In this document: piece after piece, positions 4,258-51,761 of the stretch
Numbering within the stretch: position 1 is the stretch's first letter
Layout of the letters: the number at the start of each line of letters is the position of its first letter
NCBI RefSeq assembly: GCF_018881975.1
Contig: NZ_JACVPJ010000004.1
Span: forward strand, 202,290 to 266,289
Direction of reading: 5' to 3'
Length of the DNA stretch: 64,000 nucleotides
From: Polynucleobacter sp. JS-Safj-400b-B2
Lineage (GTDB): Bacteria; Pseudomonadota; Gammaproteobacteria; Burkholderiales; Burkholderiaceae
Translations under genes and position numbers: made by a program
Notes under the pieces: generated by a model
Databases searched by the model: none
Seen by the model: only the letters and a program-made list of their open reading frames with translations
What the model was told of the DNA's origin: nothing

Positions 4258-4278
4258 TAACAGCCCCTAAAGGGCTGA
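4258..4278 (-). terminator. Hairpin (cagccc-ctaaa-gggctg) followed on the minus strand by a T-rich tract
   Basis: 6 bp GC stem. On the minus strand it is followed by ttagcgttcttataatttttgtttg. It could terminate a short minus-strand transcript from the 4280-4600 region. Confidence 0.35.
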
Positions 4279-19602: not shown

Positions 19603-19674
19603 TGAAATTTTCCATTAAAGTGAATGGATATCTTCGCAATGAATTTGACGATGTCAAACTCGAATACTCAATAT

Positions 19675-22914: not shown

Positions 22915-24177
22915 ATGAGCTCAACTACCAAAATTAAAATTGGAACCTCGGAGATTTCGCTTGATCACTTTCAACATGAGCCGCAAAAATACGCTCATGC
23001 TGTTTTACTGGCTAAAAATACGGTTGGGCACGCCAATTGCCTATGCAATAAAGATTGCCCCAGACTGGTTATAGCGAGACGTGCAGGGCGATACTATGTC
23101 GCAGGATGGCCTAATGAGGGTCACCTACATCATCCTGGGTGTGACTTTTTCAAAAACGAATCAGGGGGCTCTGGCTTGGATTCGTATTCTCAAGAGGCGC
23201 TACAAAAGAGGGGTGACGGTTCATTTTCGATTCGGCTAAACCAGCCCCTTAGTCTGGAACTTGGGGCGCCAACTAGACCCCCATCTGGCGCACGAACCAA
23301 GGTAGATTCAAAATCAACATCAAGACGATCATCAACGCTTTTGGGGCTACTTCACTACCTATGGGAAGAGTCCAACCTCAATCGCTGGTTTCCCGGGTGG
23401 CGTAGAGATTGGTATTTGGCTCGCAATCACCTTTTAGCAACCACATCCAAAGGGGAAATTGCTGGAAGGAGCATGTCTGAGGCGATGTATGTTGTGCCAA
23501 AGTTTTCTACAAATGCAGCACAAGAAATTAAAAGATCATGGGATACCTGGTCCGTACCATTGCTACGTAGCGCAATGGGCGCTACGCCTGCTAAATTGAA
23601 AAATTCGAAATCAATAACCAGAATACATACGGGGATGATTCTTGGCAGAATAAAGGCAGTTGAACGTACCGATCGTGGTTACATCATCAAACTTAAAGAT
23701 CATGCCTATCCCATTTATGCTAAACATGCTCTTATTGAGAAATTAGAAAAGAGATTCGGAAGATTCACTGCGCATATAGAACAAAACCAAGGCGAATGCA
23801 TTGTTTTGGCGCTCTTGATGCCTCACGAAAAAGGCTATTTCAGCCTCATCGATGCAGGCATAATGTATACCAGCGCGGCACTCATTCCAATCGAATCTAA
23901 CCATGAATTAAAGGTTGCCGATGCGCTGCGTTTGGCAGATCGACACTTCTCAAAACCATTGCTATACGATAGCTCGGATGAGGTATTCCCTGACTTTGTT
24001 TTATACGATACAGCCCGATCAAAAACCATTATGGAAATTTACGGCATGGTTGGCAATCAAGCGTACGACAATCGCAAAAAAGAAAAGCAAGAAGTTTATC
24101 GAAAGGCTGAGGCTGATCTTTGGGTTTGGGATCTTACAAAATCAAAAGATATGCCACCATTGCCACCGGTACGTTAA
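22915..24177 (+). CDS. DUF1173-like protein, a Cys-cluster protein typical of ICE/plasmid backbones
   Basis: N-terminal CLCNKDCPRLVIARRAGRYYVAGWPNEGHLHHPGCDFF cysteine/histidine cluster and a 420 aa size. The family call is from memory of that signature. Confidence 0.5.
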   Translation: MSSTTKIKIGTSEISLDHFQHEPQKYAHAVLLAKNTVGHANCLCNKDCPRLVIARRAGRYYVAGWPNEGHLHHPGCDFFKNESGGSGLDSYSQEALQKRGDGSFSIRLNQPLSLELGAPTRPPSGARTKVDSKSTSRRSSTLLGLLHYLWEESNLNRWFPGWRRDWYLARNHLLATTSKGEIAGRSMSEAMYVVPKFSTNAAQEIKRSWDTWSVPLLRSAMGATPAKLKNSKSITRIHTGMILGRIKAVERTDRGYIIKLKDHAYPIYAKHALIEKLEKRFGRFTAHIEQNQGECIVLALLMPHEKGYFSLIDAGIMYTSAALIPIESNHELKVADALRLADRHFSKPLLYDSSDEVFPDFVLYDTARSKTIMEIYGMVGNQAYDNRKKEKQEVYRKAEADLWVWDLTKSKDMPPLPPVR

Positions 24178-24281
24178 CGGTTTATGATTTCAATCTCCAT
24201 AGGCGCAGACGAAATGTCCGCATGGCAAAATAACGTGGCGCAGCTATTGCTAGATGACAAGATTGGTGAATATATTTCCCG

Positions 24282-24533
24282 TTAGGAAAATGGATTTGGC
24301 TTTCTAGAGGGAGGCTTAATTTCGAGAGTCTTTGGTAGCCCAGTTACATCCTCTAATGCGTCAACACCGGCATTCACAATCTGGGCTAAGAGCTTAAGGT
24401 CAGCGAGCCCGGCCTGACTAAAATCAAAGTTATGCTGACCATAAATTTTTAACGAGTCAGAGCCGTTCTCAATGGTGATCCCGCCAATCTGGATGGATTG
24501 AGCATCGTTTTTAAAGGTAACAAATTTACTCAC
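24282..24533 (-). CDS. Small protein (83 aa) translationally coupled downstream of the secreted nuclease, a candidate inhibitor or immunity partner
   Basis: The start overlaps the nuclease stop by 8 nt. Acidic, with no signal peptide. Confidence 0.4.
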   Translation of the reverse strand: MSKFVTFKNDAQSIQIGGITIENGSDSLKIYGQHNFDFSQAGLADLKLLAQIVNAGVDALEDVTGLPKTLEIKPPSRKPNPFS

Positions 24534-25317
24534 CGATTACCCCTTTCCCTGATGGTTTTGGAAGTCTTAATAATCCCACATTTTGTACGCCAGGCAACAT
24601 ATTCATGCCAGTGAGTTGATTTAGCTCTTGAACACTAATTTCTGTGTATTCTTGACCTTCTGGGCCATCGCTATTAATTTCCAAATAGGCTGCGGCCTCA
24701 TTGCGCGAAGGTAGATACACAAGTTTGTAAAGTCGAGTTGGGATGGCGACTCGATTATTTAACCAAGAAATACTACTGCCATCAAAGATAGGCCCGGTAA
24801 TAGTGTAGACCTCGCCTACCTTCTGGGCAAAATGCCTAACGGCACCCTCGATATGTGCATGCAAGCCTCTATTATTACGTGGTGCCTGTGGAATCATATT
24901 TGATAGATTGTAGGTGGCAAATTCAGTTTCATTGGACCACGAATCTGCATCACTAGCCATGTGACCTCGATCAAATCCTGAGCGTTTGAAGTCGCTTAGT
25001 TCAGCTCGATCATTATGAGATAAACGATCATCTGGCCTAAAGCTATTTTCTCTGCCGCGACCTTTACGTTCGGCCATGTGCTCAGATGTAATATGCTCGG
25101 CAGAATAAAGGGGGTCTCTGGTCAATTTGGAGTAACCAGTTGCAAACACCCCGCCTTGGGCGCAGAGCTCCACAAAACCTTGCGCTAATTTCGGGTTAAC
25201 CAATTGCGGCGGTTGTCCGCTTGCATAGTTTTCTGGGCAGCCGCTGGTCGCAAAAACAGATTGAGTAATGCTGCCAATTGCAATGGAAATAATGAGCTTG
25301 GTGAATAGTGCGTTCAA
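24526..25317 (-). CDS. Secreted DNA/RNA non-specific endonuclease (beta-beta-alpha-Me, Serratia NucA/EndoG family)
   Basis: Signal peptide, then GFDRGHMAS (the DRGH catalytic motif) and the downstream NLSNMIPQ Asn metal ligand. Confidence 0.75.
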   Translation of the reverse strand: MNALFTKLIISIAIGSITQSVFATSGCPENYASGQPPQLVNPKLAQGFVELCAQGGVFATGYSKLTRDPLYSAEHITSEHMAERKGRGRENSFRPDDRLSHNDRAELSDFKRSGFDRGHMASDADSWSNETEFATYNLSNMIPQAPRNNRGLHAHIEGAVRHFAQKVGEVYTITGPIFDGSSISWLNNRVAIPTRLYKLVYLPSRNEAAAYLEINSDGPEGQEYTEISVQELNQLTGMNMLPGVQNVGLLRLPKPSGKGVIGE

Positions 25318-25981: not shown

Positions 25982-26611
25982 TTAAGCGGCTTGAAGCGCA
26001 AGTTCACCTTTGTGGTGAAACTGGCAATTGGCAATATGCTCTTCCTTGGTGACGTTGGCCTCACTAATCGCGCCAGCAATGACTTGGTAAATCCGCTTAA
26101 CCTCATCTGGCGGGATGAGGTTTAACTTATGGCGAGCCAAATAGCTGTCAGTACGTACGCAATGAGGAATATCTTGCCTTGTCATTAGCAGTGGCGGCAA
26201 TTTATAGTCCAGCACCGCATTTTCGCCTGTAATGAGAACTCGATTTTGAACATTGATACCGGGCACAAGCGCTTTAAGGTAGCGGCACTTACGGGTATTT
26301 TGATGAATCGGATTGTCGCGGTGTTTTGCCGGCTTACCTGGCTGAGTCACAAAAAATGTGGATTGCTCTTGATGAATGAATCCATCCCAACTTTTAACTT
26401 CAAATACAAAAATGCCGCCCTCGCAAATAATGATGGTATCCGCTTCAGTGCTCGATGGCATGAGGCCGTCATTGGGCTTGAAAATGGCACCCTGAATTGT
26501 AAATACGTGCTCAAATGCTTTTTTGAACTCGCAAGATAACAGGTTTGCGGCAAATGCTTCGCTGCTGTAGCTTTTTTCTTCGGGCGTTTGGTAGTTATTT
26601 TGTGTTTTCAT
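25982..26611 (-). CDS. NERD-domain (nuclease-related, PD-(D/E)xK-like) protein
   Basis: EADTIIICEGGIFVFEVKSW (the D...E-x-K core) and the downstream NPIHQ motif characteristic of NERD domains. Confidence 0.65.
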   Translation of the reverse strand: MKTQNNYQTPEEKSYSSEAFAANLLSCEFKKAFEHVFTIQGAIFKPNDGLMPSSTEADTIIICEGGIFVFEVKSWDGFIHQEQSTFFVTQPGKPAKHRDNPIHQNTRKCRYLKALVPGINVQNRVLITGENAVLDYKLPPLLMTRQDIPHCVRTDSYLARHKLNLIPPDEVKRIYQVIAGAISEANVTKEEHIANCQFHHKGELALQAA

Positions 26612-26680
26612 AATAGAATCAGATTAAGCTACCGAAATGCAGAAGCAAGTTTGAAAAATCACGAATACGAAGAGATCTCG

Positions 26681-28498
26681 CTAGACTTCAAACCCTTGAT
26701 CAGCGATCTCCAATGCGGGCAATGTCACTCCCAATTTTTCGAGATACACTTTTGCGAGTTTTTTAATGCTCCCAGACTCAGCAGCCAAGGTTTCCAGTAA
26801 CTCTGCATTAGGATCTAGAACGCCATCACTTTGCCCCTTTTTAAGACCCAGGATATCTGCAATTACGGGATCGGATCCCTCGTCTGAAAGTAAGAAGTAA
26901 GCCAATGAGGGGTCACTCTGTCCATCACGATGGTAGCGACCAATACATTGCGTGTGAACGCCTGGACTCCAATCAATCTCGCCGAAGACGCCAACTTTGC
27001 AAACATCTTGCAACCCATCAAGCCCGGCACCAGCGCGCAAGGAGATGATCATCAGTCGAGAGTCGCCATTTACAAAAGCTTCTTTAGAGGCTTGTTTTTG
27101 TTTTGGGGATTCTGAGCCCGTATACAAAACTGGCTTAAATTCAGCCAATTGCTCCATCCAGATGTCGTAGACTTGGCGATGCCATCCAAACAGAATGACT
27201 TTTTGTTCTGAGGCTAAAAGTAAACGTACAAACTCAGCAACATACGGCGCCTTTCCAATGCCTGTTGCTTGGCGCAAGATGACGTTGAACTCTTCACTGG
27301 CGTGAAACTTCTCACCCCTATAAGATTGCCCATTAGCTAGAATAATTTTAGCCAACTCAATGGCAGAACCCCTAACTCGATCCAAAATATTAGAATCAGT
27401 ATGGATGGTTTGAATAATCTTGGGACAGGGCGGCAACTCTCGTCCAACCTCCTTGCGGGTACGTCGAAGCATGATGCCCTCACGTCGCAAATATGCGCCA
27501 AGGGCCTTGGGATCTTTGATTTGATTCTCGGTAGAACACCACTCCCGAATAAATTCCTCCTTGGTGCCAAGGCAACCAGGTAAGATCACATCAATCACAT
27601 TAAAAAACTCATGGCCCATGTTGTAAATGGGGGTGGCCGAAAGACCCATACGCAAAATGGCTTTTGAGGCAATATGTTTAGCAGCCCAATATTTATTGGA
27701 TTCATTTCTTCGCAGTTCTTGTGCTTCATCGAAGACCACATACTTTACGACGCCAGACAACGTCTCCGACCACCCGCCTAATTTATGATAGTTGCTAATA
27801 ATGACGTCAGGCATGCGAGGACAATCCTCTGAAAATAGTGCCTCTTGCTTGTCTCCATGTGGGTTTAGTGATGAAACTAAGTTGTAGGGTTGACCTGATT
27901 TTAAAATATGCACCACTAAATTTGGAGCGAATTTAGCTATCTCATCGCGCCATTGTTCTGGTAGATGAGTTAATGTCACAACAAGCACAGGCAAATGCTC
28001 TTTTTGCGCCATGGCACAAATGCTGCTTACCGTTTTCCCGAGGCCAACATCGTCAGCCAGCAAAAGACCGGATTTGATCTTAGCAAGACTTCCTGCCAAT
28101 TTTTGATATTCTCGCGCTGGTTTAGCTAGCTCAAAATTATCAGGGCTTTGAATATTATTTAGCAGTTGCGCAATGAGTGTTTCAGATTCTTCATGGGACT
28201 TTGATCTTGATTTGAGCAATGACTTTGCTTTAGTGGCCATGGTCATTGGATATCGCTCAGTAAACCAGAGTAAATCACGGGCATTTTCAATGTTATCGGA
28301 CAAAACAATGGTTTCTCCGACGCGTTGACTAACCTGAGGAAATACCCGCCTCAGCCTATTCCTAACATGGGGCTCGCAAGTAATTTGCCACGCCCCAGAC
28401 TGGTGTCTAATCTCTCCAAAACTCACAATAAACTTTCGGTTATGCGTATTGATGTTACGGGCTTGCTGCCAACAGTTAAGGGTATTTGTCCAACCCAA
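26681..28498 (-). CDS. SNF2-family (Swi2/Snf2) helicase/translocase
   Basis: Motif I LLADDVGLGKT, motif II VVFDEAQELRRN (the DEAQ box), motif III SATP and a C-terminal helicase lobe (QxxGRxxR-like CIGRYHRDGQ). Confidence 0.85.
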   Translation of the reverse strand: MGWTNTLNCWQQARNINTHNRKFIVSFGEIRHQSGAWQITCEPHVRNRLRRVFPQVSQRVGETIVLSDNIENARDLLWFTERYPMTMATKAKSLLKSRSKSHEESETLIAQLLNNIQSPDNFELAKPAREYQKLAGSLAKIKSGLLLADDVGLGKTVSSICAMAQKEHLPVLVVTLTHLPEQWRDEIAKFAPNLVVHILKSGQPYNLVSSLNPHGDKQEALFSEDCPRMPDVIISNYHKLGGWSETLSGVVKYVVFDEAQELRRNESNKYWAAKHIASKAILRMGLSATPIYNMGHEFFNVIDVILPGCLGTKEEFIREWCSTENQIKDPKALGAYLRREGIMLRRTRKEVGRELPPCPKIIQTIHTDSNILDRVRGSAIELAKIILANGQSYRGEKFHASEEFNVILRQATGIGKAPYVAEFVRLLLASEQKVILFGWHRQVYDIWMEQLAEFKPVLYTGSESPKQKQASKEAFVNGDSRLMIISLRAGAGLDGLQDVCKVGVFGEIDWSPGVHTQCIGRYHRDGQSDPSLAYFLLSDEGSDPVIADILGLKKGQSDGVLDPNAELLETLAAESGSIKKLAKVYLEKLGVTLPALEIADQGFEV

Positions 28499-28803
28499 GA
28501 TGGCGAGCCAATAACTACAATTGATGAAATATCAGGGTGTTTTGTATAGCGGTTGATCTGGCGAAGGGCTTGAGCTAGGGATCCTTGGATTTTGACCTCA
28601 AGCGCAATGCCGCCATCAATAATGAAATCCGGCCTATCCTTGGCGGTCAATGCTTGTTCGCGCGCATAGGAAATTTTGCGCTGTTGTAGTAATTGCTCAA
28701 TTCCATTCTGAAGGTCAAGCTCAGATGCAAACCGGAATCTCACTCCTTCAAAAACCTGTGCAAGAGAAGAGGGAGTTATATTGTTTTGCGCAAATAGTGA
28801 CAT
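28423..28803 (-). CDS. Small PD-(D/E)xK-like protein (126 aa) overlapping the 5' end of the SNF2 gene
   Basis: DRPDFIIDGGIALEVK fits a D-x(n)-E-x-K restriction-endonuclease-fold motif. It overlaps the helicase ORF by 76 nt in another frame. Confidence 0.4.
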   Translation of the reverse strand: MSLFAQNNITPSSLAQVFEGVRFRFASELDLQNGIEQLLQQRKISYAREQALTAKDRPDFIIDGGIALEVKIQGSLAQALRQINRYTKHPDISSIVVIGSPSWVGQIPLTVGSKPVTSIRITESLL

Positions 28804-28833: not shown

Positions 28834-29805
28834 TCAAATAAATAGGCTAAATTCAGGAGCATTTTTAAATCTTTCGGCCCCACCTCTCGCGTAGTCGTAG
28901 ATAACATCGCAGGCAAGCCAACGACGACCGAGTTCTTGAGCCGCTTTGGCGGTAGTAAAGGATCCCGCCATTGGGTCGACTACCAAGTCATCTTTTTGCG
29001 TCATAAATTCAATTAAGAATTTCGACATACTTAATGGGTAGCCTGCGCCATGAGCCTCGACACCCAAATCTTTAGCTGCCTTTTTATAAGCACGCTGATC
29101 TGCGCAGTTATGCGGGAAAGTGAGAAGATTGCGAGGAATCCGACCTGGTGTGGGGCTGGAGTAGCTACCTTCTTTGACCGTGTAAGCGCCGTCGGAGCTA
29201 ATTCTTTTTTGAGTAACGCCGCCAGCCTCAATGAACTTGAGGTGTTTTTCAGTATGCGGTTGCAATACTCGTCTATTGTTTGATCGGCATTCCTTTGGGT
29301 CTAAGCAAAACCAATAGATCGGCTCCCATCCGACGTTAAGCTGTTGCCGTGTTTTGCTTGCCCATTCCATTGGCCCTGGCGGCTTACAAGGGTTATGCCA
29401 AATTAATTCATCCATTTTGAAAAGGCCAAGGCGATCATGCAATGCAATTACAAGCCTCTCGCGGTATAAGCTCCGAGCAGGTAGTCCGGCGAGGAAAATG
29501 TCATTACTTAAATTCAAACAAATACTTCCACTTTTAGCCATGTTCTTGATGACGGGCTCCATGGCTGAGCAGATAAAATCGACATATTCTGATTCTGGGG
29601 GATTGCCATAGGCGCGCGGCTTACGAAGCGGGTAGGGCGGAGAAGTAAGGCAAAGATGAATTTGCTGACCATCTAGACGGCTAAAAATATCCTTACAGTC
29701 ACCCCATAAGGCGATTCCAAGATCGGTTGAAAAAGCGAGTAGTATTTTTCCAGCCTGAATCCTCTCAAATTTTTTCGGGTATCCGAGTTTTGTGGTTGAT
29801 GCTGC
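28834..29805 (-). CDS. Beta-class amino-methyltransferase (N6-adenine or N4-cytosine) whose N-terminus is interrupted by an in-frame TAA, with no canonical start codon before motif IV
   Basis: Motif IV SPPY (29622 region) precedes motif I DPMAGSFTT, the beta-class order. The conserved N-terminal ALWGDCKDIF...LTSPPY lies upstream of the only ATG (29562). An ATG at 29835 is followed by a TAA at 29806-29808 in the same frame. Confidence 0.75.
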   Translation of the reverse strand, partial: AASTTKLGYPKKFERIQAGKILLAFSTDLGIALWGDCKDIFSRLDGQQIHLCLTSPPYPLRKPRAYGNPPESEYVDFICSAMEPVIKNMAKSGSICLNLSNDIFLAGLPARSLYRERLVIALHDRLGLFKMDELIWHNPCKPPGPMEWASKTRQQLNVGWEPIYWFCLDPKECRSNNRRVLQPHTEKHLKFIEAGGVTQKRISSDGAYTVKEGSYSSPTPGRIPRNLLTFPHNCADQRAYKKAAKDLGVEAHGAGYPLSMSKFLIEFMTQKDDLVVDPMAGSFTTAKAAQELGRRWLACDVIYDYARGGAERFKNAPEFSLFI

Positions 29806-29898
29806 TTAAATTACTATGCGTTGAATAATTTTCATTTTGATTGATGACACTAATAAAACATTTATGCATTCATCTACTTGGATACAGAAGTCAACCGC

Positions 29899-30498
29899 CT
29901 AAATATCACCACCCTTTGCCTTGCTGCCAAGGTAGCCGCTATGGTGACGCAGGGCGTAATCATTGGCTCCATACCCCGACATTTGCACCACTAAAACAGC
30001 CAATACATCACCAATGACAGTCATGGCGGTAGTCGAAGTGGTTGGCGTAAGCCCAAGCGGGCAGGCCTCCACTGGATCGCCAGTCCATAGTACGAAATCG
30101 GACTTATTGGCCAATGGCGAGTTTTGCTTGCCCGTAATAGCGATAATTTTGAGGGAGGGAATGAGGCGTTTTGCAAGGGTCTCTAGCTCCAAGACTTCTC
30201 GCGTCTGGCCGGAGTTTGATATGAGCATCAATACATCGTTTTGATGAAGAAGCCCTAAATCACCATGTTGTGCCTCTAGTGGGTGCAAAAACGCGCTTGG
30301 CAAACCAACAGAGCAAAAAGTAACAGCCATCTTCTTGCCGACCTCGCCAGCTTTCCCCACACCGCTGATGACAAGTTTTCCACTATTTGCCTTAGCTTTT
30401 AAAAAGAGTTTGGTACATTGCTCAAAAGGATTTTCCTTTGGAATGAAGGCAATTGCCCTAGCCTCAGCGGCGAGTACATCTTGGATTATTTTTATCAA
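29899..30498 (-). CDS. SIS (sugar isomerase) domain protein, KpsF/GutQ N-terminal-domain-like
   Basis: VISGVGKAGEVGKKMAVTF...HPLEAQHGDLG matches the SIS phosphosugar-binding fold. The protein is 199 aa with no CBS domains. Confidence 0.7.
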   Translation of the reverse strand: MIKIIQDVLAAEARAIAFIPKENPFEQCTKLFLKAKANSGKLVISGVGKAGEVGKKMAVTFCSVGLPSAFLHPLEAQHGDLGLLHQNDVLMLISNSGQTREVLELETLAKRLIPSLKIIAITGKQNSPLANKSDFVLWTGDPVEACPLGLTPTTSTTAMTVIGDVLAVLVVQMSGYGANDYALRHHSGYLGSKAKGGDI

Positions 30499-30600
30499 AA
30501 TTTAGTCCGTTTATTGTGGATGCGACTTGGATGCAATGCAGTCAGCCAATCACAAAACTCTGTTTATGAGTTAATTGCTATTTTGCACGATATGGGTAAA

Positions 30601-30879
30601 TCAATCATGAAACTCGGATACCCATTTTTTCTTGCCAGCATCAGTAAGGCGCCATTCTGACCGATTGCCGGCGGGCTCAAGCAAACCAAGTCGCTTTAAA
30701 TCTTGCTGGTACCATCGGATTTTTCGATTGAGGATATTGTGCTTTTGCCTGCACTTACCAACGGGCTGTACTGAATCGCCAGAATTTGGCGCAACTTTGT
30801 TATAAAGGGATTTATTACTCAGCGTTCCGGTGCCGGCGTAGGCTTGGGCGATATCGAATAGGTCTATTTGTTTTGGCAT
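30601..30879 (-). CDS. Small basic protein (92 aa), possibly winged-helix
   Basis: RWYQQDLKRLGLLE...LTDAGKKKW wing-like segment. Confidence 0.3.
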   Translation of the reverse strand: MPKQIDLFDIAQAYAGTGTLSNKSLYNKVAPNSGDSVQPVGKCRQKHNILNRKIRWYQQDLKRLGLLEPAGNRSEWRLTDAGKKKWVSEFHD

Positions 30880-30961
30880 GTACTATTTGACCGTTTGTAA
30901 TTTGAAAAGCAAACGTGAAATACCGCCACAATTTAGATGTGGCGGTATTTAAAACTACTAA

Positions 30962-33040
30962 CTAGGTTAATTCAGTAGCCTGCGGAGCCTCGGATGCCTT
31001 TGAAGCGATAACCTGAACCTGTGGGATGCTCTTATCGTCACCCTTCTTAAGCCCATCATGCAGCATAGTGCCAAGTAAGACATCCACTAAAGAGCCATTG
31101 GACCCCGTACCTCCACCGGCAATAATATCGGGAACCAATTTCACGCCAGCACTGGCGAGCGCTTGAGCCACTTGAACCAATGCGTAGTTACCCGATTCCA
31201 TGGAATCAATCTTTTGCTTGATAACATCGGCCTCTGCACCGCCAATGGCTTTCACTTTTGCCGCCTCTGCATCACCGGTTACGCGCGTAACCTGGGCATC
31301 AGCTTCAGCGTTAATCGTCTTGGACTTGGCGTCTCCCTCGGCCGAAGCGATTGCTGCTTTCGCCGTAAATTCAGCAATGGCAACTTTTCGCTCAGCATCA
31401 ACCACCTGAGCCTGTGTGTTCGCAAGTGCAGTTGCTTGCTCTAGGGTTTGGCGAACAGATTGGGCATCCTTTTGCGTTTCATAGGTTACTTTTTCTTGAT
31501 CGGCAATTTTTCGGTCTGTGAGCGTTTTCATTAATGCGTCAGGAGGTGAAATATCGCCGATCAACGTTTCTACAGCGCCAACGTTGTATTCGGCCAAAGC
31601 GTTGCCAATGGCTTCTTTAGCCTCCTTTTGACGCTCGGTGCGGGCGTTTAGAAATCCAATAACATCGGATTCTTGAGCTGAATTGCGGAAGTAGTTACCA
31701 ATCATTGGCTCCAATACCTGAGTGACCAAGGCATCCATGCTGCCAAATCGTGCGATTACCTTGGGGGCGTCATTACGCGGAATATGAATGATCTGGCTTA
31801 CATCCAAGTTAAACGTAAAGCCATCGGCAGAGCGCACGGTGATGGTTGATAGCTTCTCATCTAATTTATGAGCTTCGCTCTTCGCGTTGGCCCAGTTCAG
31901 GACTACGTTAGCAGTCGGAACATTAATGACCTTGCGTGTATAGGGGTTGAATGCATATTTACCGGGATCAAGAACATCATTCCACACACCTTTTTCACCC
32001 TTACTCACTAGATTTCCGTGCTTAAACTCTTCGCCGGATAAATCCCTGCCTTCCTTGCCAACGTAAGAGACAACTACACCAACGTGAGCAATCGGAACCT
32101 CGACCATGTTCACAATTTCAACGGTTGCAAAGCGAGGATTAATAAAGTAGCGGCCCGCTTGCAATACTTGCTCTTGCAAGCCTTTAGTGCCGCCTCCCTC
32201 AACAAAAGCTTTCGGGTCTTGGAACATACTATGACCTGTAATCTCAGGGCCAGCAATCTCACCTGTTTTAAGTGGCTCACCTTCGCGCGTTGTAACGACG
32301 CCAATTTGGTTATCTGGGATATCAACTACATCAACTAATTTCACGTCAAATAAGGCGGTATTAATGCGATAGTTTCCTTGCGGAATCACGCTCATTTGTG
32401 GACCACGTTGACCGCCATTGCCCATAAACTCGGATGCATTCTGAAAGGAGTCGCAGCTAACGCTATTGGCAATAATTCTGCCATCCTGTAGCGGCTTCCC
32501 ATCCTTTGCCTCTACTACGCCGATCTTTCCGCTGGGGATTGATATGATATCAACAGCCTCAACACTGAAGAGAAGGGTGTTGATGCGCCAAGACCCTTGG
32601 GAAAGAACGCCCATTTGTGGTCCGCGTTGACCGCCATTGGATAGGAATGCCCTCGCATCCTGGAAGTTGCTCGACTCTACTTGTTTTGCAATGATACGTC
32701 CTTCTGGTAAAGAGTCTCCGTCACGGGCTTGAACAATACCAATTTGACCCTGACGAATACTGACAAAGGGCTTGAGCTCTACCAAGTATTGCCATGGCCA
32801 TAGGCCAATATGCAATCCTGGCGCCAAAGTATCGGCCTGATAGCCAGCCTCGCCATTAAGCGCGATGATACGATTTGCAGGCAAACTTTTGTTACCAAGC
32901 AAAACAAATTTCTTTGTAACCACACCAATTGAATCGTCAGGAACGATGATGACGCCAAATGTCCAAAGTACATACTTATAGCCGAGTACGGCTAGAATTG
33001 CTGGCAGAATCCACCAGTATTGAATAATTGTCTCGAACAT
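30962..33040 (-). CDS. Flotillin-like SPFH protein (YqiK family) with an internally duplicated region
   Basis: N-terminal TM, an SPFH core and a C-terminal Ala/Glu-rich flotillin coiled-coil. The segments GGQRGPQMGVLSQGSWRINT and GGQRGPQMSVIPQGNYRINT form a tandem duplication. Confidence 0.75.
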   Translation of the reverse strand: MFETIIQYWWILPAILAVLGYKYVLWTFGVIIVPDDSIGVVTKKFVLLGNKSLPANRIIALNGEAGYQADTLAPGLHIGLWPWQYLVELKPFVSIRQGQIGIVQARDGDSLPEGRIIAKQVESSNFQDARAFLSNGGQRGPQMGVLSQGSWRINTLLFSVEAVDIISIPSGKIGVVEAKDGKPLQDGRIIANSVSCDSFQNASEFMGNGGQRGPQMSVIPQGNYRINTALFDVKLVDVVDIPDNQIGVVTTREGEPLKTGEIAGPEITGHSMFQDPKAFVEGGGTKGLQEQVLQAGRYFINPRFATVEIVNMVEVPIAHVGVVVSYVGKEGRDLSGEEFKHGNLVSKGEKGVWNDVLDPGKYAFNPYTRKVINVPTANVVLNWANAKSEAHKLDEKLSTITVRSADGFTFNLDVSQIIHIPRNDAPKVIARFGSMDALVTQVLEPMIGNYFRNSAQESDVIGFLNARTERQKEAKEAIGNALAEYNVGAVETLIGDISPPDALMKTLTDRKIADQEKVTYETQKDAQSVRQTLEQATALANTQAQVVDAERKVAIAEFTAKAAIASAEGDAKSKTINAEADAQVTRVTGDAEAAKVKAIGGAEADVIKQKIDSMESGNYALVQVAQALASAGVKLVPDIIAGGGTGSNGSLVDVLLGTMLHDGLKKGDDKSIPQVQVIASKASEAPQATELT

Positions 33041-35527: not shown

Positions 35528-36517
35528 ATGATCAATCACGAAACAATCTTATCGACGCTTTACATTGCACTAAACCCCATCAAAGAATATTTGGAGGGTG
35601 ATGGCATCAATGAAATCATGATTAATCCAGGGGGCGATGTCTGGATTGAGCGAAGGGGAATGATTGAGCATATTGGCGTTTTACTCAACGAGAATCAAAT
35701 AAAATTCGCCATTTATTCGGTAGCCAAACTCACCGGTAAGGCGGCAAGCCCAGGCGATGAAAATGCGCTAGTCAACGCAGCTTTTGAAGATTTTCGTTTT
35801 GCAGGAGTGCTGCATCCCATTTCACCTGATGGAAGCACGATTTGCATTCGAAAACATCAGGATAAAAGTCAGAGGCAGACTTTTGAAGATATGATTGACT
35901 GCGCCATGATTACCCAATCTCAAGGCGATTTTATATTGGATATGTTTGTTAAAAAGCATCAAAATATCATCATCGCAGGTATTACTGGCTCGGGCAAAAC
36001 AACCCTTTTAAATGCAATTGCCGGAAAAATACCAAACCATGAACGGGTGGTTACGATTGAAGATACAAGAGAACTCCATATATCTGTGGCGAATAAAGTA
36101 TCACTGTTATCAAATGAGCTTAACAATATTCATGCGGTAGATTTGGTTAAAGAGGCTTTGCGCCTGCGCCCGGACCGGATATTGCTAGGGGAAACACGTG
36201 GGTCAGAAACATTCGACTTAATAAGGGCCTTTAATTCGGGCCACGCCGGCATATCCACTGTACATGCTAATTCAGCAGTGCTGGCCTTAGATGCGATTGA
36301 GATGCTTTATCAAATGAGCCTACCAAAAGGAGCGGGCATTAGTTCGGCAGTGGTAAGACAGTACATTGCAAAATCAGTCAACATGACTATCTATGCAAAT
36401 CGACGATATATCCCGCAGCCAGACGGCACTATTCGCGCCGTTCGTAAAGTTGAGGAAATTTGTGTAATCAAGGGGCTTGATCGCGATGGAAATTACGAGG
36501 TTGAATACATCAAATAA
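35528..36517 (+). CDS. trbB: VirB11/TrbB-family type IV secretion ATPase
   Basis: Walker A GITGSGKTT, TIEDTRE (the Asp box), Walker B RILLGETRG and the His box HAGISTVHANS. Confidence 0.8.
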   Translation: MINHETILSTLYIALNPIKEYLEGDGINEIMINPGGDVWIERRGMIEHIGVLLNENQIKFAIYSVAKLTGKAASPGDENALVNAAFEDFRFAGVLHPISPDGSTICIRKHQDKSQRQTFEDMIDCAMITQSQGDFILDMFVKKHQNIIIAGITGSGKTTLLNAIAGKIPNHERVVTIEDTRELHISVANKVSLLSNELNNIHAVDLVKEALRLRPDRILLGETRGSETFDLIRAFNSGHAGISTVHANSAVLALDAIEMLYQMSLPKGAGISSAVVRQYIAKSVNMTIYANRRYIPQPDGTIRAVRKVEEICVIKGLDRDGNYEVEYIK

Positions 36518-36646
36518 TTTTTAATTTATCAACGACCATGTAAGCACTAGTGGTCTGTGGTCGTTGCCATAAGCTGTTGATTTAAAACAAATCTCATTTT
36601 TTACAATACGACCATCGAGGGTATTTTTTTTGAAATGAAATATATA

Positions 36647-36672
36647 AACCGGGACGAATCCCGGCTTTTATG
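36647..36672. terminator. Bidirectional hairpin terminator (ccggga-cgaat-cccgg) between convergent genes
   Basis: GC stem followed by CTTTTA on the plus strand and by a T-rich tract on the minus strand. Confidence 0.5.
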
Positions 36673-36688
36673 GTGTCAATTAAATTTA

Positions 36689-37057
36689 CTATTGGACAAT
36701 CCAACCCGTTGGGCAAGACTGTGCGACTGGGTAGAAAGCATTTGAAGGAGGGCAGAAATAAGTTAAAGGCCGTACATTTGGGTTTGGCTGCGTAACAAAT
36801 ACTTGCGGTTGCTGTTGAATGTAAATGGCTTGTGGTTGAACGTATGCGGACGGATAGTAAGGTCCATAACTATAGCCATAAGATCCATACCCATATCCGT
36901 AAGGAGCGTATGGGCGGTAATAGGAGTTTGCTGCAATAACGGTGCCGACCATCGCCCCACCAAGCAGGGCCGCACCCCAATTTCCGCCTCCATGAGCAAA
37001 AGATGGCGATGATAATAGTCCAGTTGTTGCCAATAATGCGATTAGAATTTTTTTCAT
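36689..37057 (-). CDS. Secreted Gly/Tyr-rich protein
   Basis: Signal peptide MKKILIALLATTGLLSSPSFA, then GYGYGSYGYSYGPYY repeats. Confidence 0.45.
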   Translation of the reverse strand: MKKILIALLATTGLLSSPSFAHGGGNWGAALLGGAMVGTVIAANSYYRPYAPYGYGYGSYGYSYGPYYPSAYVQPQAIYIQQQPQVFVTQPNPNVRPLTYFCPPSNAFYPVAQSCPTGWIVQ

Positions 37058-37130
37058 TTTTCCCCAAATCAGAGTCGTTGTTGGTACCTTAACAGTATTG
37101 CCGGTGATTTTGTTGACACAAGTTAACCAT

Positions 37131-38201
37131 TTAATTAGGCGCCTCGTCCCAAGTGCGCCCATCTAGGATCCGGCCAGCCTTTTTCTTGCCGACTCTACGC
37201 ATATGCACATCGCCACGCAAAAAACGGCCATCGCATTCGCGGTCAAACCGAACATGCTCGACAATTCCACAGCGCATATCGCCACCTAAATCGCCACCGG
37301 CACGCAGTTGATCCGGGTAGTATTCTCCCCATTGTTTAAATAAGAAAGGCACATCATGTCCAATGCATTGATCACGTAAATTTTGGGCCCATGCGGGATG
37401 CATAGGCCTTGCTCCAGGCCCTGATTCTCCGCCGACAATGACCCAATCGATACCGCAGTCCCAACCGGTCCATGAGGCTTCAATCCCGCAATGTGGGCAT
37501 AAAGGGATAACTTCTCCGTTGGCAGCCAAAAATACCTCAGTAGAATCTTTATCTACATAAGGTGTATCTGGGCACACATCCATGCAGGTAATGCCGGTAG
37601 GATCGAGCCAGCGCGCAATATCGATCCTTCCTAATAGCGGCTCAATGCTCAAAAAGCGCTTTGCAGCCGGCACCTTTAATAGTTTTGGAATATCGCGATC
37701 GGCTTCCTCTTGGTTGCAGATCGTTGCCCCAATCCATACATTAGGCCAAGGCCATTGCGCGAGGGGTGAATGATTGTGTTGGCCGGTGCTACATAGGCTG
37801 TCGGGCTCCAATTCCTCAGTAGCCCGCGCAATCATAGGCTGTGCATTTCCGATGCGCTTAGTTAAAAGTAGCCAGTCTAAATTCGGTGTTTGGCGAATGA
37901 GGGCAAATAAATCCGTGCGCCAGTGGCGTGGCACTGCATTATCAAATACATCGGCCAGCGAAGCGCAAAAGACCTTGTAGCGCACACCTTTTTCACCGGC
38001 TTCTTTATTCCATTTGAGCGGCTGCTTCCAGTTGGCCTCAGTTGTTCGGCGACGCTCGGCGTTGGGGCCCCACGCAACAGAGCCACTACGCTTTGCCCAA
38101 CTCTCTGCATAACAATGATCGCAAGCGGGCGACACTTTGGCGCAACCCGTCCAGGGATTAAAGGTGTGATCACACCATTCAATAGTAGTATCTTTTGCCA
38201 T
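37131..38201 (-). CDS. Phage Gp37/Gp68-family protein
   Basis: N-terminal IEWCDHTFNPWTGC...CDHCYA Cys/His cluster and a 356 aa size. Family call from memory of the IEW(T/C)...NP..GC signature. Confidence 0.55.
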   Translation of the reverse strand: MAKDTTIEWCDHTFNPWTGCAKVSPACDHCYAESWAKRSGSVAWGPNAERRRTTEANWKQPLKWNKEAGEKGVRYKVFCASLADVFDNAVPRHWRTDLFALIRQTPNLDWLLLTKRIGNAQPMIARATEELEPDSLCSTGQHNHSPLAQWPWPNVWIGATICNQEEADRDIPKLLKVPAAKRFLSIEPLLGRIDIARWLDPTGITCMDVCPDTPYVDKDSTEVFLAANGEVIPLCPHCGIEASWTGWDCGIDWVIVGGESGPGARPMHPAWAQNLRDQCIGHDVPFLFKQWGEYYPDQLRAGGDLGGDMRCGIVEHVRFDRECDGRFLRGDVHMRRVGKKKAGRILDGRTWDEAPN

Positions 38202-38202
38202 T

Positions 38203-38925
38203 TTATTTCCGTGAATTTTGAAAATTTACGGCGCCTGTCTCGCCTTGAGTCGCCTTGCCATTAATAGGCCTAAACTCAATAACCCAGACCCAAGGGTTTG
38301 AGTCCCAGTTTCTATAAATAGAGCTCCAAAGATCACGGAATGTGTCTTTTCCATTCCCAAAAAAGCCATCGTCATTATGAGCATAGCGAGTTGCGCTAAA
38401 CACGCTTACAGCTTTTACGCCCTCAGCCATTGCATCTGCCTCGCTAATATCTTGAAGTCGCTCAATGCGTACATTGGTGATCTCTAAAGTGATGCGACTA
38501 GCAGATCTGGGCATATGGATAGATGGGTGCCATGCTGATCTTCGCTCACCGCCACCGTCATCATCCCCAGCCCATTCGTGATCGCCATCGGCGGCATAAA
38601 TCACATGACCTGTGTAGTAGCCACGCCCATGTTTAAGTTCGTGGACGTGGGTAGCTGGCCTATCAGGAGTCCACTCAATCATGTCGCCGTCTGCGTTGAT
38701 TGCATAGCTTATAACACCCCATGTCTCCCGCACCCACAAGCGATCCCCCACTTGACCATAAGGGCAGGCAAGAATTGCGTCAGGATCTTCAACGTGCCAG
38801 TTTTTATCTTTGCATTGTGCTCGACCAGATGCGTTAAGTTTTACAATACGCCTGGTTTGTGTCTTAGTGCCGTCAAGAATGGCTCTCACCATGTCGCCAT
38901 TGAATAGGATAGGACGCTCGATCAT
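38203..38925 (-). CDS. ASCH/PUA-like domain protein
   Basis: An N-terminal ILFNGDMVRAILDGTKTQTRR motif of the kind commonly seen in ASCH-domain proteins. Confidence 0.45.
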   Translation of the reverse strand: MIERPILFNGDMVRAILDGTKTQTRRIVKLNASGRAQCKDKNWHVEDPDAILACPYGQVGDRLWVRETWGVISYAINADGDMIEWTPDRPATHVHELKHGRGYYTGHVIYAADGDHEWAGDDDGGGERRSAWHPSIHMPRSASRITLEITNVRIERLQDISEADAMAEGVKAVSVFSATRYAHNDDGFFGNGKDTFRDLWSSIYRNWDSNPWVWVIEFRPINGKATQGETGAVNFQNSRK

Positions 38926-39164
38926 GCTTGCTCACCTTTAGCTTTCTTGTCGCCATCACTCACATCTAGAAAGATGGCTTTGTTTTCGCCACATACCGGG
39001 CAGCAAGCGCTCTTAAGCAATGTGGCACATTTTTCCATCGGCATTGGCAGATACGCCGCAACCCAATGGTGATCGCAAGATTTGCAAAGTACCTTTAACG
39101 GTGTTTTAGAGGGTGGTTTTTCCATTTGAAGGCTCTCCCCCGTTAATATTTTTTTAGCGCTCAC
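38922..39164 (-). CDS. Small zinc-ribbon protein
   Basis: CKSCDHH...CCPVCG Cys pairs. Overlaps both neighbours by 4 nt. Confidence 0.4.
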   Translation of the reverse strand: MSAKKILTGESLQMEKPPSKTPLKVLCKSCDHHWVAAYLPMPMEKCATLLKSACCPVCGENKAIFLDVSDGDKKAKGEQA

Positions 39165-41047
39165 GCCGCCATCTCCATAAATTGTTTATCAACATAGTTT
39201 TTCGCAACCAACGCCTGCGCGATAGGTGGGCAAACAGAATTGCCGACCATCTTCACTTGATTGGTTTTCGATAAGGGCTTGCCTTTGAACTCAAATTCAT
39301 GGATATAGCTCTCTGGAAAGCCTTGAGCTAAATAAAGCTCATGTGGTTGGAGCATGCGCATACCAATATCGACAATGACATAAGGCTCGCCATTCAGATG
39401 TACGATAACTAGACCAAACCGGTCCTTGGTTGGTATTGTGTGCAAGGGCTCATCGAGCGGTACACCATCTTTTTCATTGCCGTAATACTTGACCAGCAAT
39501 GCTCGAACCTCGCCAGCATGAGTGCCCCCAGCGGTAACGGTGTGCAATGGTGAATTTACAGGGCTGCCAACGTTATCGCCACGCAATTTGACCATGTGGC
39601 TAGTAACTAGACCTTGTGTAATTGCGGTGCCTGGTCGTTTTGGTTGGCCACCCGCAATAATGGTGTGCATCGGGGTATCAAGCTCAAAGCCAGTGCTACC
39701 AGTATTGAACTTAGTCATATGGGCAGTAACGACCGAATGATGATCAACTGTGGTGACAGTGCCGGTTGGCTTATCTAATGGCTGGCCAAGAACGCCCGTG
39801 TAATGTTTGGCCAAGAACGCCGATACAAGTGCGCGCCTATTCTCGGTGGTTTGGGTTTTTAAGGGCTCATCAAACGAAGATCCGCGCGTATCACCGGACT
39901 CAGTTTTATGGCCGTAATAGCTTGAAATATGCGCTGCCACCAGATTTTCTAACTCTTCTTCGTCTGCACCTTCATATGGAAGCTCAATTTCATCTAGTAC
40001 ATCAGAACAAGATGATTCACCACATTTTGGACATGTTGGATTTCTTTCGTAATCATCCACACCATATCGAGCGCCACAATTGTCGCAACCAAAGCGCCAA
40101 CGTCTAAGTGCGCCACTATCAGCTTTAGCTAGGGCTGGTACCACAATAGCCCTGTGATTTTCCGTGGGAACGGTACCCAGTGGTTTTAATGTTGACGATG
40201 GTTTTCCTGAATACACGGGGCCGCCTTGCCCGACAATAAATGGCTCCCCAGTCTCAATCACATAGCGCACTACACCTTTGGCTATGCGTTTAAGTGTTGA
40301 TTCAGCAAGAGGTTTCTTGCGATCAAAAATTGAAGGGCAGGGAATGGACCAGTCAATACACTCAGCTGCAGTTCGCCATTCCTTAAGCCTCTTAGGGTCA
40401 AAGCCTTTTGCCTTTGGGTTTCCATGAGTAATTTGTGGCCACTCAATTGGCATGCCATCGCAGCGAGCCACCAAAAAGAGGCGCTTGCGAATAGTTGGAG
40501 CTCCGTAGTCACTAGCGACCAAGGTTTTCCATTCAACTTGGTAGCCTAGTCTTTTTAATGCTTCAATCCATAGGTCAAAGGTTTTGCCTTTGCGTTTTTT
40601 GCATGGCATGAAGCCGCCAGTTTTTTTATCCTTAACAACAGGTCCCCAAAACTGCATTTCTTCAACGTTTTCCATCATGATTACGCGAGGGCGTACTTTG
40701 GAGGCCCAGCGAACCACCACCCAAGCAAGAGATCTCAACTGCTTGGAAACAGGGGTTCCCCCACGTGCTTTAGAAAAATGAGTGCATGACGGGCTGGCCC
40801 AGAGCAAACCAACAGGCCGACCACCGCTAGCCTCAACCGGATCAACCTCAAAAATGTCTGAGCAGTAATGCTTAGTTTGAGGGTGATTGGCTGTATGCAT
40901 GGCAATAGCTGCTTCATCATGGTTGATCGCGATATCGACTGAGCGACCGATAGCCGCTTCTATACCGGTAGATGCACCACCACCGCCTGCAAATAAATCT
41001 ACGACGAGCTCGTTATGGATGGGGAGATTAAATTGGGGTGTAAGCAT
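39161..41047 (-). CDS. DNA (cytosine-5)-methyltransferase with an enlarged variable region containing about six reiterated TRD-like modules and an internal zinc ribbon
   Basis: Motif I DLFAGGGG, motif IV ASPSCTHFS (PC), motif VI ENV (MMENVEEM). Repeated modules PLxT(V/I)xxxxHxxLVxxxxxKxxG occur at least six times. The CDNCGARYG...CPKCG segment is a Zn ribbon. Confidence 0.8.
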   Translation of the reverse strand: MLTPQFNLPIHNELVVDLFAGGGGASTGIEAAIGRSVDIAINHDEAAIAMHTANHPQTKHYCSDIFEVDPVEASGGRPVGLLWASPSCTHFSKARGGTPVSKQLRSLAWVVVRWASKVRPRVIMMENVEEMQFWGPVVKDKKTGGFMPCKKRKGKTFDLWIEALKRLGYQVEWKTLVASDYGAPTIRKRLFLVARCDGMPIEWPQITHGNPKAKGFDPKRLKEWRTAAECIDWSIPCPSIFDRKKPLAESTLKRIAKGVVRYVIETGEPFIVGQGGPVYSGKPSSTLKPLGTVPTENHRAIVVPALAKADSGALRRWRFGCDNCGARYGVDDYERNPTCPKCGESSCSDVLDEIELPYEGADEEELENLVAAHISSYYGHKTESGDTRGSSFDEPLKTQTTENRRALVSAFLAKHYTGVLGQPLDKPTGTVTTVDHHSVVTAHMTKFNTGSTGFELDTPMHTIIAGGQPKRPGTAITQGLVTSHMVKLRGDNVGSPVNSPLHTVTAGGTHAGEVRALLVKYYGNEKDGVPLDEPLHTIPTKDRFGLVIVHLNGEPYVIVDIGMRMLQPHELYLAQGFPESYIHEFEFKGKPLSKTNQVKMVGNSVCPPIAQALVAKNYVDKQFMEMAA

Positions 41048-41142
41048 GATTAGAATTCAGCGGAAAGAAAACTCATCTTCCCCTTGAAATACCATAAGTC
41101 AAACTGCCAACACTATAATTAGCACGTCGGCAAATGCATGCA

Positions 41143-41715
41143 TTAATTAACTTTGCTTACTTTGATCAAAACTTCCTTGTGATGTCCATTGATATCATTC
41201 GCAATTGCAATCTCCTCGTCCAGAGTCACAACCAGGTTTGATTCGATGCGCGTACTTTCAACTGTCGGCACTTGGACTGTCAGATCACCTACCCGCACAT
41301 CCTTCATGCTTAGTAATTTAGATGTAAGCATCTCAAACTTTAAATTTAGATGACGATTATCAAGCCGGTCTCCGCGCTCCAAAGAAGTCCAGATGGTGTT
41401 GCCGACTTGCAAGTCCTTGTAATGCGATGATTCATGCGCGACCCCGCCAGCCTCTACAGTTGATAAGCTGGAGTCAAGATAACCAATTGTTTGACCAGTT
41501 TGAGTGATGCCTTTTCGACCATCCGCAAGTGTCAAGATGGTGAAATCACTATCGATGATCCCATTTTCCATGATGCTGATACGAACTGCATATTGTTCCG
41601 CATTGTTTTTGGTTAGCTTATCTGGCTCATGGCATTTATCTGCGCTCGCAGCCCCAGAAAATAGGGTCATTGCTAAAAACATTGGGCCAAAAAAACTAAT
41701 TGATGTCGCCTTCAT
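41143..41715 (-). CDS. Secreted hypothetical protein
   Basis: Start chosen at MKATSISFFGPMFLAMTLFSGAASA, a signal peptide. Confidence 0.4.
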   Translation of the reverse strand: MKATSISFFGPMFLAMTLFSGAASADKCHEPDKLTKNNAEQYAVRISIMENGIIDSDFTILTLADGRKGITQTGQTIGYLDSSLSTVEAGGVAHESSHYKDLQVGNTIWTSLERGDRLDNRHLNLKFEMLTSKLLSMKDVRVGDLTVQVPTVESTRIESNLVVTLDEEIAIANDINGHHKEVLIKVSKVN

Positions 41716-41948
41716 CTGAAATTTCCTTTTTAGTGAACTAACCAGTTGGTTATTCACTACTTTAAGGATTTTTTCGCGACAAATATTACGGAGTTCTAGT
41801 AAATATTTCACGCAATAAGAGAATCGTTGGCTTGAATTTATTGCTCTTAATCCAAATTACTCAATTATTTACCAGTATTCGTTAATCAATGGAGGCTCTT
41901 GGTTAGCAAAATAAAACGGTCACCAATACACGAATTAAGGACCGTTAT

Positions 41949-42281
41949 ATGAATGCCATTGCACTTACATCGCCACAATTAAAAAGATTCTTTCAAAAGA
42001 TGTCGTGGCCGATCATAGGCTTTATTGGGCTCTTAATGATGGGCGTTGATGTCGCTAACGCACAGGGAATCAACACTGCCGCTTTTTGCTTTTTTATCAA
42101 CAACTTCAAGCTAATCATTGCTGCAGTAGCAGTCATCGCCTTAATGGTTTGGGGCGCAATGTACATGATGAAAAAAGCAGATATAGCCGATGTTGGGTTA
42201 TATATTATTTCGGCTTGCGTACTCGTTGGTGCCGCGGGTGCAATCATTATGAATACCGGTTTAATGCCCCCTAGCTGTTAA
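41949..42281 (+). CDS. VirB2/TrbC-like conjugative pilin
   Basis: A 110 aa protein with a long leader and two hydrophobic segments, immediately upstream of VirB3/VirB4 homologues. Confidence 0.5.
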   Translation: MNAIALTSPQLKRFFQKMSWPIIGFIGLLMMGVDVANAQGINTAAFCFFINNFKLIIAAVAVIALMVWGAMYMMKKADIADVGLYIISACVLVGAAGAIIMNTGLMPPSC

Positions 42282-42297
42282 TAGAGCATTAGTAGAT

Positions 42298-46015: not shown

Positions 46016-46026
46016 GAAAGAGTTAA

Positions 46027-47265: not shown

Positions 47266-47277
47266 AAGGAACTATAA

Positions 47278-48187: not shown

Positions 48188-48195
48188 GCAAACTA

Positions 48196-49848: not shown

Positions 49849-49853
49849 ATACC

Positions 49854-51750: not shown

Positions 51751-51761
51751 AGAAAACTTTT

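Follow-up and report, generated by a model that had tools for sequence, protein, structure and literature searches.

Organization of the Methylase Locus

The stretch of DNA analyzed in this study (64,000 nucleotides; hereafter, the window) corresponds to a conjugative element, with genes for VirB4, TrbL/VirB6, a VirB11-like ATPase, a PilN/O/Q-type pilus, and DUF1173. Two DNA methylases are encoded in it, the second being of the C5 type. The gene of the first, which is the subject of this work, lies on the minus strand in two native parts and is followed by three intact genes:

25982-26611, minus strand: NERD protein, intact.
26681-28426, minus strand: SNF2 helicase, intact, with a probable GTG start that overlaps the stop of orf126.
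28423-28803, minus strand: orf126, intact, with weak, sub-threshold PD-(D/E)XK hints; it matches phrog_5928, a phage family of unknown function.
25982-28803, minus strand: the downstream genes as a block, common to the window and to locus L001, which encodes the closest homologue of the methylase.
28834-29768, minus strand: native methylase codons 86-396 plus the stop, holding the whole N6_N4 catalytic domain, with no promoter-proximal canonical start.
29643-29632, minus strand: SPPY motif of the methylase, inside the catalytic part.
30625-30879, minus strand: native methylase codons 1-85, a Mrr_N-like winged-helix domain that aligns to residues 1-85 of P0001, the homologue encoded on L001.

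A frameshift fusion of orf126 with the SNF2 gene was considered and discarded, as the two genes are joined by an ordinary GTGA stop/start overlap.

In the first-pass annotation, the catalytic part had been represented by an ORF of 242 aa (28834-29562, starting at ATG 29562), and its frame had been described as running further upstream to a TAA preceded by the peptide MKIIQRIVI, with no ATG, GTG, or TTG between this TAA and the SPPY motif. These codons were confirmed. The minus strand from 29835 to 29806 reads ATG-AAA-ATT-ATT-CAA-CGC-ATA-GTA-ATT-TAA (MKIIQRIVI*), with the TAA at 29808-29806, and this mini-ORF is in the same frame as the 242-aa ORF. The methylase frame is open from 29805 (AASTTKLGYPKKFERIQAGKILLAFSTDLGIALWGDC...TSPPYPL), through ATG 29562, to the stop at 28834. 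The 81 sense codons between 29805 and 29562 include no in-frame ATG, GTG, or TTG, and the only near-cognates among them are ATT 29760, ATA 29745, ATC 29715, ATT 29688, and ATT 29661. When the extended frame was compared with the Pfam profile N6_N4_Mtase (PF01555), profile position 1 aligned at residue 49; since the profile begins upstream of 29562, in the extended frame, the 242-aa ORF is devoid of motif IV (SPPY) and, as had been suspected, is not a complete enzyme.

Within a gene, 81 successive sense codons with no start among them are unremarkable, and this stretch is gene interior. The true start of the methylase is ATG 30879, about 1.07 kb upstream of the mini-ORF. It opens an ORF of 92 aa (30601-30879, minus strand) that matches Pfam Mrr_N with an E value of 8e-6; the product starts with MPKQIDLFDIAQAY and continues to RLTDAGKKK, after which come the residues WVSEFHD, contributed by the repeat of the element described below, and a stop at 30603-30601. 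In the sequence as it stands, the Mrr_N and N6_N4_Mtase domains are located in separate ORFs.

Methylase Homologues and the Empty Site

The search for homologues with the extended methylase frame as the query gave 1455 matches. The best 120 of these are all between 374 and 521 aa in length, none of them is missing the N-terminal region, and 115 of them present Mrr_N (PF14338) ahead of N6_N4_Mtase. The best match, P0001, is an intact protein of 396 aa that begins with MPKQIDLFDIAQAY...RLTDAGKRKFERIKAGQILLAFSTDLG. When the two methylase fragments of the window were aligned to the homologues, they abutted end to end with no residues missing.

Locus L001 represents the empty site: it is collinear with the window to either side of the insert and has nothing at the insert position. 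Its positions 1-588 match window positions 31224-30631, and its positions 592-4774 match 29772-25591 with 89.9% identity and one gap. The removal in silico of 29777-30623, together with one copy of the flanking 8-bp duplication, restored an uninterrupted ORF of 396 codons, equal in length to P0001 and 93.5% identical to it in a gap-free alignment. The junction after this repair reads GGCAAGAAAAAATTTGAGAGG, and its counterpart in L001 reads GGTAAGCGGAAATTTGAAAGA. Only after removal of the insert do Mrr_N, motif IV (SPPY), and motif I (DPxxGSxTT) follow one another, in this order, in a single polypeptide of about 400 aa.

The Inserted Element

The sequence that separates the two methylase fragments comprises the following features:

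29769-29776, minus strand: second copy of the exact 8-bp target-site duplication, GAAAAAAT.
29777-30623, minus strand: inserted element of 847 bp, a transposase-less mobile insertion cassette (MIC) of the ISL3 type, bounded by inverted repeats and absent from L001; its removal restores the ORF.
29777-29800, plus strand: terminal inverted repeat at the opposite end from the SIS-upstream one, GGGTATCCGAGTTTTGTGGTTGAT (plus-strand reading).
29806-29835, minus strand: mini-ORF MKIIQRIVI*, subterminal sequence of the element and not part of the methylase.
About 29845-29854: junction of a 617-bp higBA deletion.
29850-29861, minus strand: remnant of the higB start, ATG TTT TAT TAG.
29899-30498, minus strand: cargo gene for a stand-alone SIS-domain protein of 199 aa (PF01380, E 2.4e-18), with a TTG start.
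30547-30560: degenerate inner copy of the repeat, near the end upstream of the SIS gene.
30600-30623, minus strand: SIS-upstream terminal inverted repeat, GGGTATCCGAGTTTCATGATTGAT.
30624-30631, minus strand: first copy of the exact 8-bp target-site duplication, GAAAAAAT.

In minus-strand orientation, the element starts with GGGTATCCGAGTTTCATGATTGAT at 30623 and terminates with ATCAACCACAAAACTCGGATACCC at 29777. Its terminal inverted repeats of 24 nt match at 21 of the 24 positions, the first 14 being perfect, and the insertion site is located after codon 85, in the linker between the Mrr_N and N6_N4_Mtase domains. The 8-bp duplication, the inverted repeats, and the empty site together indicate transposition through a staggered cut of 8 bp.

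The SIS gene is the sole long ORF of the element and is oriented on the same strand as the methylase. Its product is a member of a large family of roughly 200-aa proteins; the full-length homologues of 199 aa are 84-88% identical to it, and the partial protein P0157 is 98% identical over its length. This closest relative is still adjoined by higBA. Moreover, the window element aligns end to end with a form of about 1457-1458 bp found elsewhere, except for a deletion of 617 bp that extends from the third codon of higB to just past higA. On the evidence of these alignments, the window element is a recent higBA-deleted derivative of the SIS-HigB-HigA cassette of 1457 bp.

The mini-ORF is located at the end of the element closest to the catalytic fragment, with its ATG 59 nt and its TAA about 30 nt inside the element end. 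Both triplets are also present in the copies at loci L004, L010, L012, L029, and L038, whereas L024 has TAC in place of the stop, and this recurrence at other loci assigns ATG 29835 and its TAA to the element. A function of the mini-ORF as a leader peptide was rejected, as its variable codons differ at all three positions, and the comparison suggests that this subterminal region is conserved as DNA and not as a peptide.

The element as a whole gave no match by blastn against the PLSDB plasmids. Elsewhere in the window, a pair of repeat-like 14-mers (7036-7049 and 19656-19669) might have bounded a transposon of 12.6 kb; this was rejected, as there is no duplication and the similarity ends after 14 nt.

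Cassette Copies in Other Genomes and Their Relationship to ISL3 Elements

Copies of the cassette were sought with a degenerate repeat pattern, which detected 8 loci in species-representative genomes and 21 loci in JGI metagenomes. The named genome records that carry cassettes are betaproteobacterial MAGs and isolates, including Methylotenera, Ferrovum, and Burkholderiaceae. The cassettes end in GGGTATCCGAGTTT-type repeats, and the element sizes deduced from paired ends are 298, 940, 1030-1031, and 1457 bp, besides the 847 bp of the window copy. The forms differ in their cargo: that of about 1457 bp, found in betaproteobacterial metagenomes, carries the SIS gene with HigB (Gp49) and HigA, that of 1030 bp a remnant of the SIS gene with HigBA, that of 940 bp HicA/HicB, and that of 298 bp (L002) one small ORF. 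Matching 8-bp flanks were observed at seven distinct sites, namely AAAAGTAA, GCTATTTT, ATAAATTA, CAAAGATT, ATTAATTT, CAATAATG, and, in the window, GAAAAAAT. To judge from the sequences, such a number of insertion sites with duplications shows past mobility of the cassettes. None of the copies encodes a transposase.

In the viral contigs of IMG/VR, the repeat matched a single contig, which coincides in length and match position with the Ferrovum contig, and a search of full-text papers for the repeat sequence returned unrelated matches only. A cassette family of this composition (SIS with or without HigBA, or HicAB) appears to be without a description in the literature searched.

The terminal repeats relate the cassettes to the ISL3 family. 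ISPpu12, a member of the ISL3 family, has inverted repeats of 24 bp and carries passenger genes (PMC3735179, PMC4133298), and composite transposons bounded by ISPpu12 are flanked by 8-bp direct repeats (PMC3735179). The ISPpu12 of plasmid pWW0 is 3372 bp long with ends GGGTATACGGATTTAATGGTTGAT and GGGTAAGCGGATTAAATGGTTGAT, and its left repeat, GGGTATACGGATTTAATGGTTGAT, matches each of the window repeats at 19 of 24 positions. In addition, a 30-nt repeat query against PLSDB (E up to 10) matched Thauera sp. K11 plasmid pTX1 and Acidovorax plasmid pEP1, in both cases 7 nt past the 3' end of an annotated ISL3 family transposase gene. The pTX1 element is 4420 bp long, carries seven passenger genes, and is bounded by the repeats GGCTATCCGATTTTCGTGATTGAA / GGGTATCCGTTTTCCGTGATTGAT, which match those of the window at 19-20 of 24 positions; its duplication, GGTAAAAT, is likewise 8 bp and AT-rich. 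The A+T content averages 84% over the seven cassette duplications plus the pTX1 site.

The window element possesses ends of the ISL3 type (19/24 against ISPpu12 and 19-20/24 against pTX1) and the 8-bp target-site duplication of this family. An ISL3 DDE transposase (DDE_Tnp_ISL3) is not encoded in the window element, where SIS is the only long ORF, so the element is at most a non-autonomous derivative and not an IS. A tblastn search with the TnpA of ISPpu12 against the 64-kb window and all cassette loci also gave no match. Since neither the window nor any of the cassette loci retrieved yielded an ISL3 transposase with ends of this type, it is from the similarity of the repeats and the 8-bp duplication that we infer mobilization in trans by an ISL3 transposase.

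The methylase gene has very probably been split by a transposed non-autonomous cassette of the ISL3 type and not by a nonsense mutation or recoding. In the mechanism proposed, an ISL3-family DDE transposase acting in trans would bind the 24-bp repeats of the element and cut the AT-rich target GAAAAAAT with an 8-bp stagger, so that the target would afterwards flank the element at either end. In this way, the element would have entered the 396-codon gene of an N4/N6 methyltransferase (Mrr_N plus N6_N4_Mtase) located on a conjugative element. The N-terminal 85 residues would then be translated as a 92-aa stub that stops within the repeat, and the catalytic part would be left without a start codon.

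Activity of the Split Methylase and Its Neighboring Genes

No further lesions were detected in either methylase fragment, and their dN/dS values against L001 (0.057 and 0.061) are near those of the neighboring SNF2 (0.067) and NERD (0.088) genes; together, these observations point to a recent insertion. Given the insertion, the activity of the methylase has probably been lost.

The main alternative is that the catalytic fragment is still made, yielding a two-piece or truncated active methylase, through initiation at ATT 29760, ATA 29745, or ATT 29688 or through read-through of the TAA following ATG 29835. The catalytic domain is whole from the first position of its Pfam profile, and its core looks self-contained, with the 330-position PADLOC model for type II methylases covering only residues 97-388 of P0001; nevertheless, the N-terminal region is present in all of the best 120 homologues. 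Continued production could likewise be read from the absence of secondary lesions and the low dN/dS, although a recent insertion accounts equally well for the latter. With regard to translation, the fragment presents 81 codons without a canonical start. GAGG or AGGA motifs do occur upstream of near-cognate codons, but the spacing of these purine motifs is poor, at 0-1 nt for both ATT 29760 and ATT 29688 and roughly 15 nt for ATA 29745. The genuine genes of the region also have weak Shine-Dalgarno sequences, and as they are equally weak in this respect, the strength of the ribosome-binding site discriminates little. Read-through of TAA is generally very inefficient in bacteria. As for transcription, the SIS gene and the methylase share one orientation, which makes read-through into the catalytic fragment plausible. 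A sigma-70 scan for a promoter directed outward from the element into the methylase fragment gave nothing above shuffle expectation, and the higBA promoter of the related cassettes (TTGACT-16-TACAAT) is degraded in the window by a 1-nt deletion. Overall, persistence of an active fragment is considered unlikely. The rare start codon or recoding put forward in the first-pass annotation is not needed to account for the structure of the locus, and near-cognate initiation at a low level is possible. A more far-reaching proposal, in which an undescribed family of self-stabilizing cargo cassettes would be spreading among freshwater Betaproteobacteria and the window copy, through its position in the linker, would have uncoupled the DNA-binding Mrr_N from a catalytic domain started at a near-cognate codon, changing the targeting or regulation of the enzyme, is regarded as very unlikely.

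Loss of the methylase next to intact nuclease and helicase genes had been expected to be lethal, as host DNA would be unmodified. This expectation is unsupported, though not disproved; nothing indicates that the nuclease-like and helicase genes provide a restriction activity checked by the methylase. Analysis of the four genes with PADLOC recognized no defined defense or restriction system among them and returned generic matches only, namely MTase_II for the methylase, similarity of the SNF2 protein to DpdE/ZorD/DrmD, and the NERD region of PglW. Homologues of the methylase are carried by a Methylovorus plasmid and by integrase-associated islands, where their neighbors vary and include an ERCC4 nuclease, an integrase, and unrelated small genes.

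Alternative Origins of the Insert

For the insert, an origin as an assembly chimera, intron, intein, or element of programmed excision is highly improbable, and we found no specific support for any of these. Exact 8-bp duplications and inverted repeats are located at its junctions, as they are at independent sites. An intron is further opposed by the Rfam scan of 29400-31000 (E up to 1), in which no family matched, whether intron, riboswitch, or other, an intein by in-frame stops at both junctions, and an excision element by the lack of a recombinase in the element.

The presence of ATG 29835 and the TAA in the methylase frame had suggested that 29806-29808 held a nonsense mutation or a sequencing error in a continuous gene starting at this ATG, a reading with practically no remaining credence that is refuted by the L001 empty site and the in silico repair: the intact orthologue has nothing that corresponds to the 59 nt between 29835 and 29777, the same 59 nt, with the same stop triplet at the same position, recur at the ends of unrelated, independent element copies, and the real N-terminus is 1.07 kb upstream. 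What stands of the first-pass annotation is the broken methylase frame; the causes proposed for it give way to the insertion of the 847-bp element.

Implications for Annotation

The locus should be annotated as a single methylase gene that a mobile element has disrupted, and the labels of 242-aa methylase, nonsense mutant, or recoding candidate should be avoided; the upstream 92-aa "Mrr_N protein" is the head of the same methylase gene. The event is an ordinary insertional knockout. Through it, the conjugative element would recently have been reduced from two DNA methylases to one, with a possible effect on its protection on entering new hosts. The copies detected elsewhere indicate a small, uncatalogued family of ISL3-type cassettes that would move toxin-antitoxin pairs and a SIS gene among Betaproteobacteria without a transposase of their own. 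This family may be of moderate interest to curators of insertion sequences, and it involves no new principle.

Comparison with Known Systems

The repaired gene resembles the solitary Mrr_N N4/N6 methyltransferases borne by plasmids and ICEs in domain order and length, and the homologue on the Methylovorus plasmid is likewise located on a conjugative element. Its identity to these methyltransferases is 57-64%, compared with 93% to the closest one, P0001. The gene in the window differs from them in being interrupted, and the orf126, SNF2, and NERD neighbors are common only to the window and its closest relative, L001.

The cassettes belong to known kinds of elements, namely MICs and ISL3 elements with passenger genes. 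As with the cassettes, the ISPpu12 and pTX1 elements carry genes unrelated to transposition. However, the ISPpu12, pTX1, and pEP1 elements each supply an ISL3 transposase (430-472 aa) themselves, while the window element and the other cassettes encode none, and the cargo also differs, being SIS, HigBA, or HicAB in the cassettes, lspA/czcD/cadR in ISPpu12, and Fic/DUF551 in the pTX1 element.

Toxin-antitoxin pairs are also carried by Tn3-family transposons (PMC7157771). In a similar way, the full-length cassette holds HigB/HigA and another member holds HicA/HicB, but the duplications of the cassettes are of 8 bp and not 5 bp, they have neither transposase nor resolvase, and the window copy has lost its toxin-antitoxin pair. 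MITEs are non-coding, multicopy elements of tens to a few hundred bp. The window copy is not a MITE, as it measures 847 bp, contains an ORF of 199 aa, and occurs once in the window; the only MITE-sized cassette is the 298-bp copy in L002.

MICs have been defined as elements with the inverted repeats and target duplication of an IS family, no transposase, and passenger genes, presumed to be mobilized in trans (PMC4133298); MITEs share these features apart from the passenger genes. The window element shows IS-type repeats, a passenger gene, and a target duplication, and it has no transposase. The parent element of MIC231 of Bacillus cereus is IS231, an IS4-family member from Firmicutes; unlike MIC231, the cassettes described here are of the ISL3 type and are found in Betaproteobacteria.

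Conjugative setting and SIS proteins outside the cassettes

The window is a conjugative element, whose genes occupy the following intervals:

Window 35528-53219, 39161-41047, 22915-25317 and 11739-12890: conjugative-element genes

These genes encode the conjugation proteins VirB4, TrbL and a VirB11-like protein, a thin pilus of the PilN/O/Q type, a second DNA methylase (C5 type, 628 aa), and a DUF1173 protein, together with a non-specific endonuclease and an ATP-dependent DNA ligase. Six retrieved loci (L015-L020) and the ENA contig of protein P0126 also contain stand-alone SIS proteins, which are about 200 aa long and share 78-85% identity with the cassette cargo, as in the following example:

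L015 3001-3618: SIS gene

Their settings are phage-like contigs and conjugation gene clusters, the position in the latter being between TraN and the coupling protein, adjoining a methyltransferase. These proteins look like a family associated with mobile elements.

Downstream of the split methylase gene, an N-terminal extension of the SNF2 helicase is conserved in the window (28423-28498) and in L001, the collinear contig carrying the intact methylase relative. The helicase likely starts at GTG 28426, which shares bases with the stop codon of orf126 (GTGA); the alternatives are TTG 28498, given in the ORF listing, and a later ATG chosen by the L001 gene caller.

Cassette copies, their termini and related elements

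Copies of the 1030-bp cassette were located in related metagenome contigs (L022 2790-3819, L033 2847-3876, L039 1090-2119, and L040 at 81). The flanking octamers CAATAATG and GATAAAAA are swapped among these copies, which indicates that two copies have recombined with each other. The copy in L033 lies within what we take, from the N-terminal sequence at 3854-4348, to be a Tn3-family transposase gene, in its 5' portion. The cassette copy in locus L024 (7512-7570) has TAC where the window cassette has TAA, so that the nine-codon mini-ORF is open and extends past the element boundary in the direction of a 301-aa ORF starting 25 bp away that is, judged by eye, presumably nadC-like.

The cassette end upstream of the SIS gene holds a second, degenerate version of the terminal repeat in an internal position (window 30547-30560), and its counterpart in the HicAB cassette of L009 is the actual terminus (7530-7553). 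Elsewhere in the window, 14-mers resembling the terminal repeat occur at 7036-7049 (plus strand) and 19656-19669 (minus strand), with one and two mismatches, respectively. Neither is accompanied by a target duplication, and the similarity fades beyond 14 nt; either could be a chance match or an old solo end.

The cassette-type terminal repeat also adjoins much larger cargo in L031 (239-4620), L032 (1-2401) and L028 (1-1649), comprising an ATPase (648 aa) and its 294-aa partner, a sensor protein with a PAS domain (at least 682 aa), and a repeat protein of 284 aa; a second element end was not found within the retrieved DNA of these loci. An ISL3 element of 4.4 kb is common to two plasmids from different betaproteobacterial orders, Thauera pTX1 (L055 47-4466) and Acidovorax pEP1 (L053). 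Its seven passenger genes include ones encoding Fic and DUF551 proteins, and an 8-bp duplication flanks the pTX1 copy.
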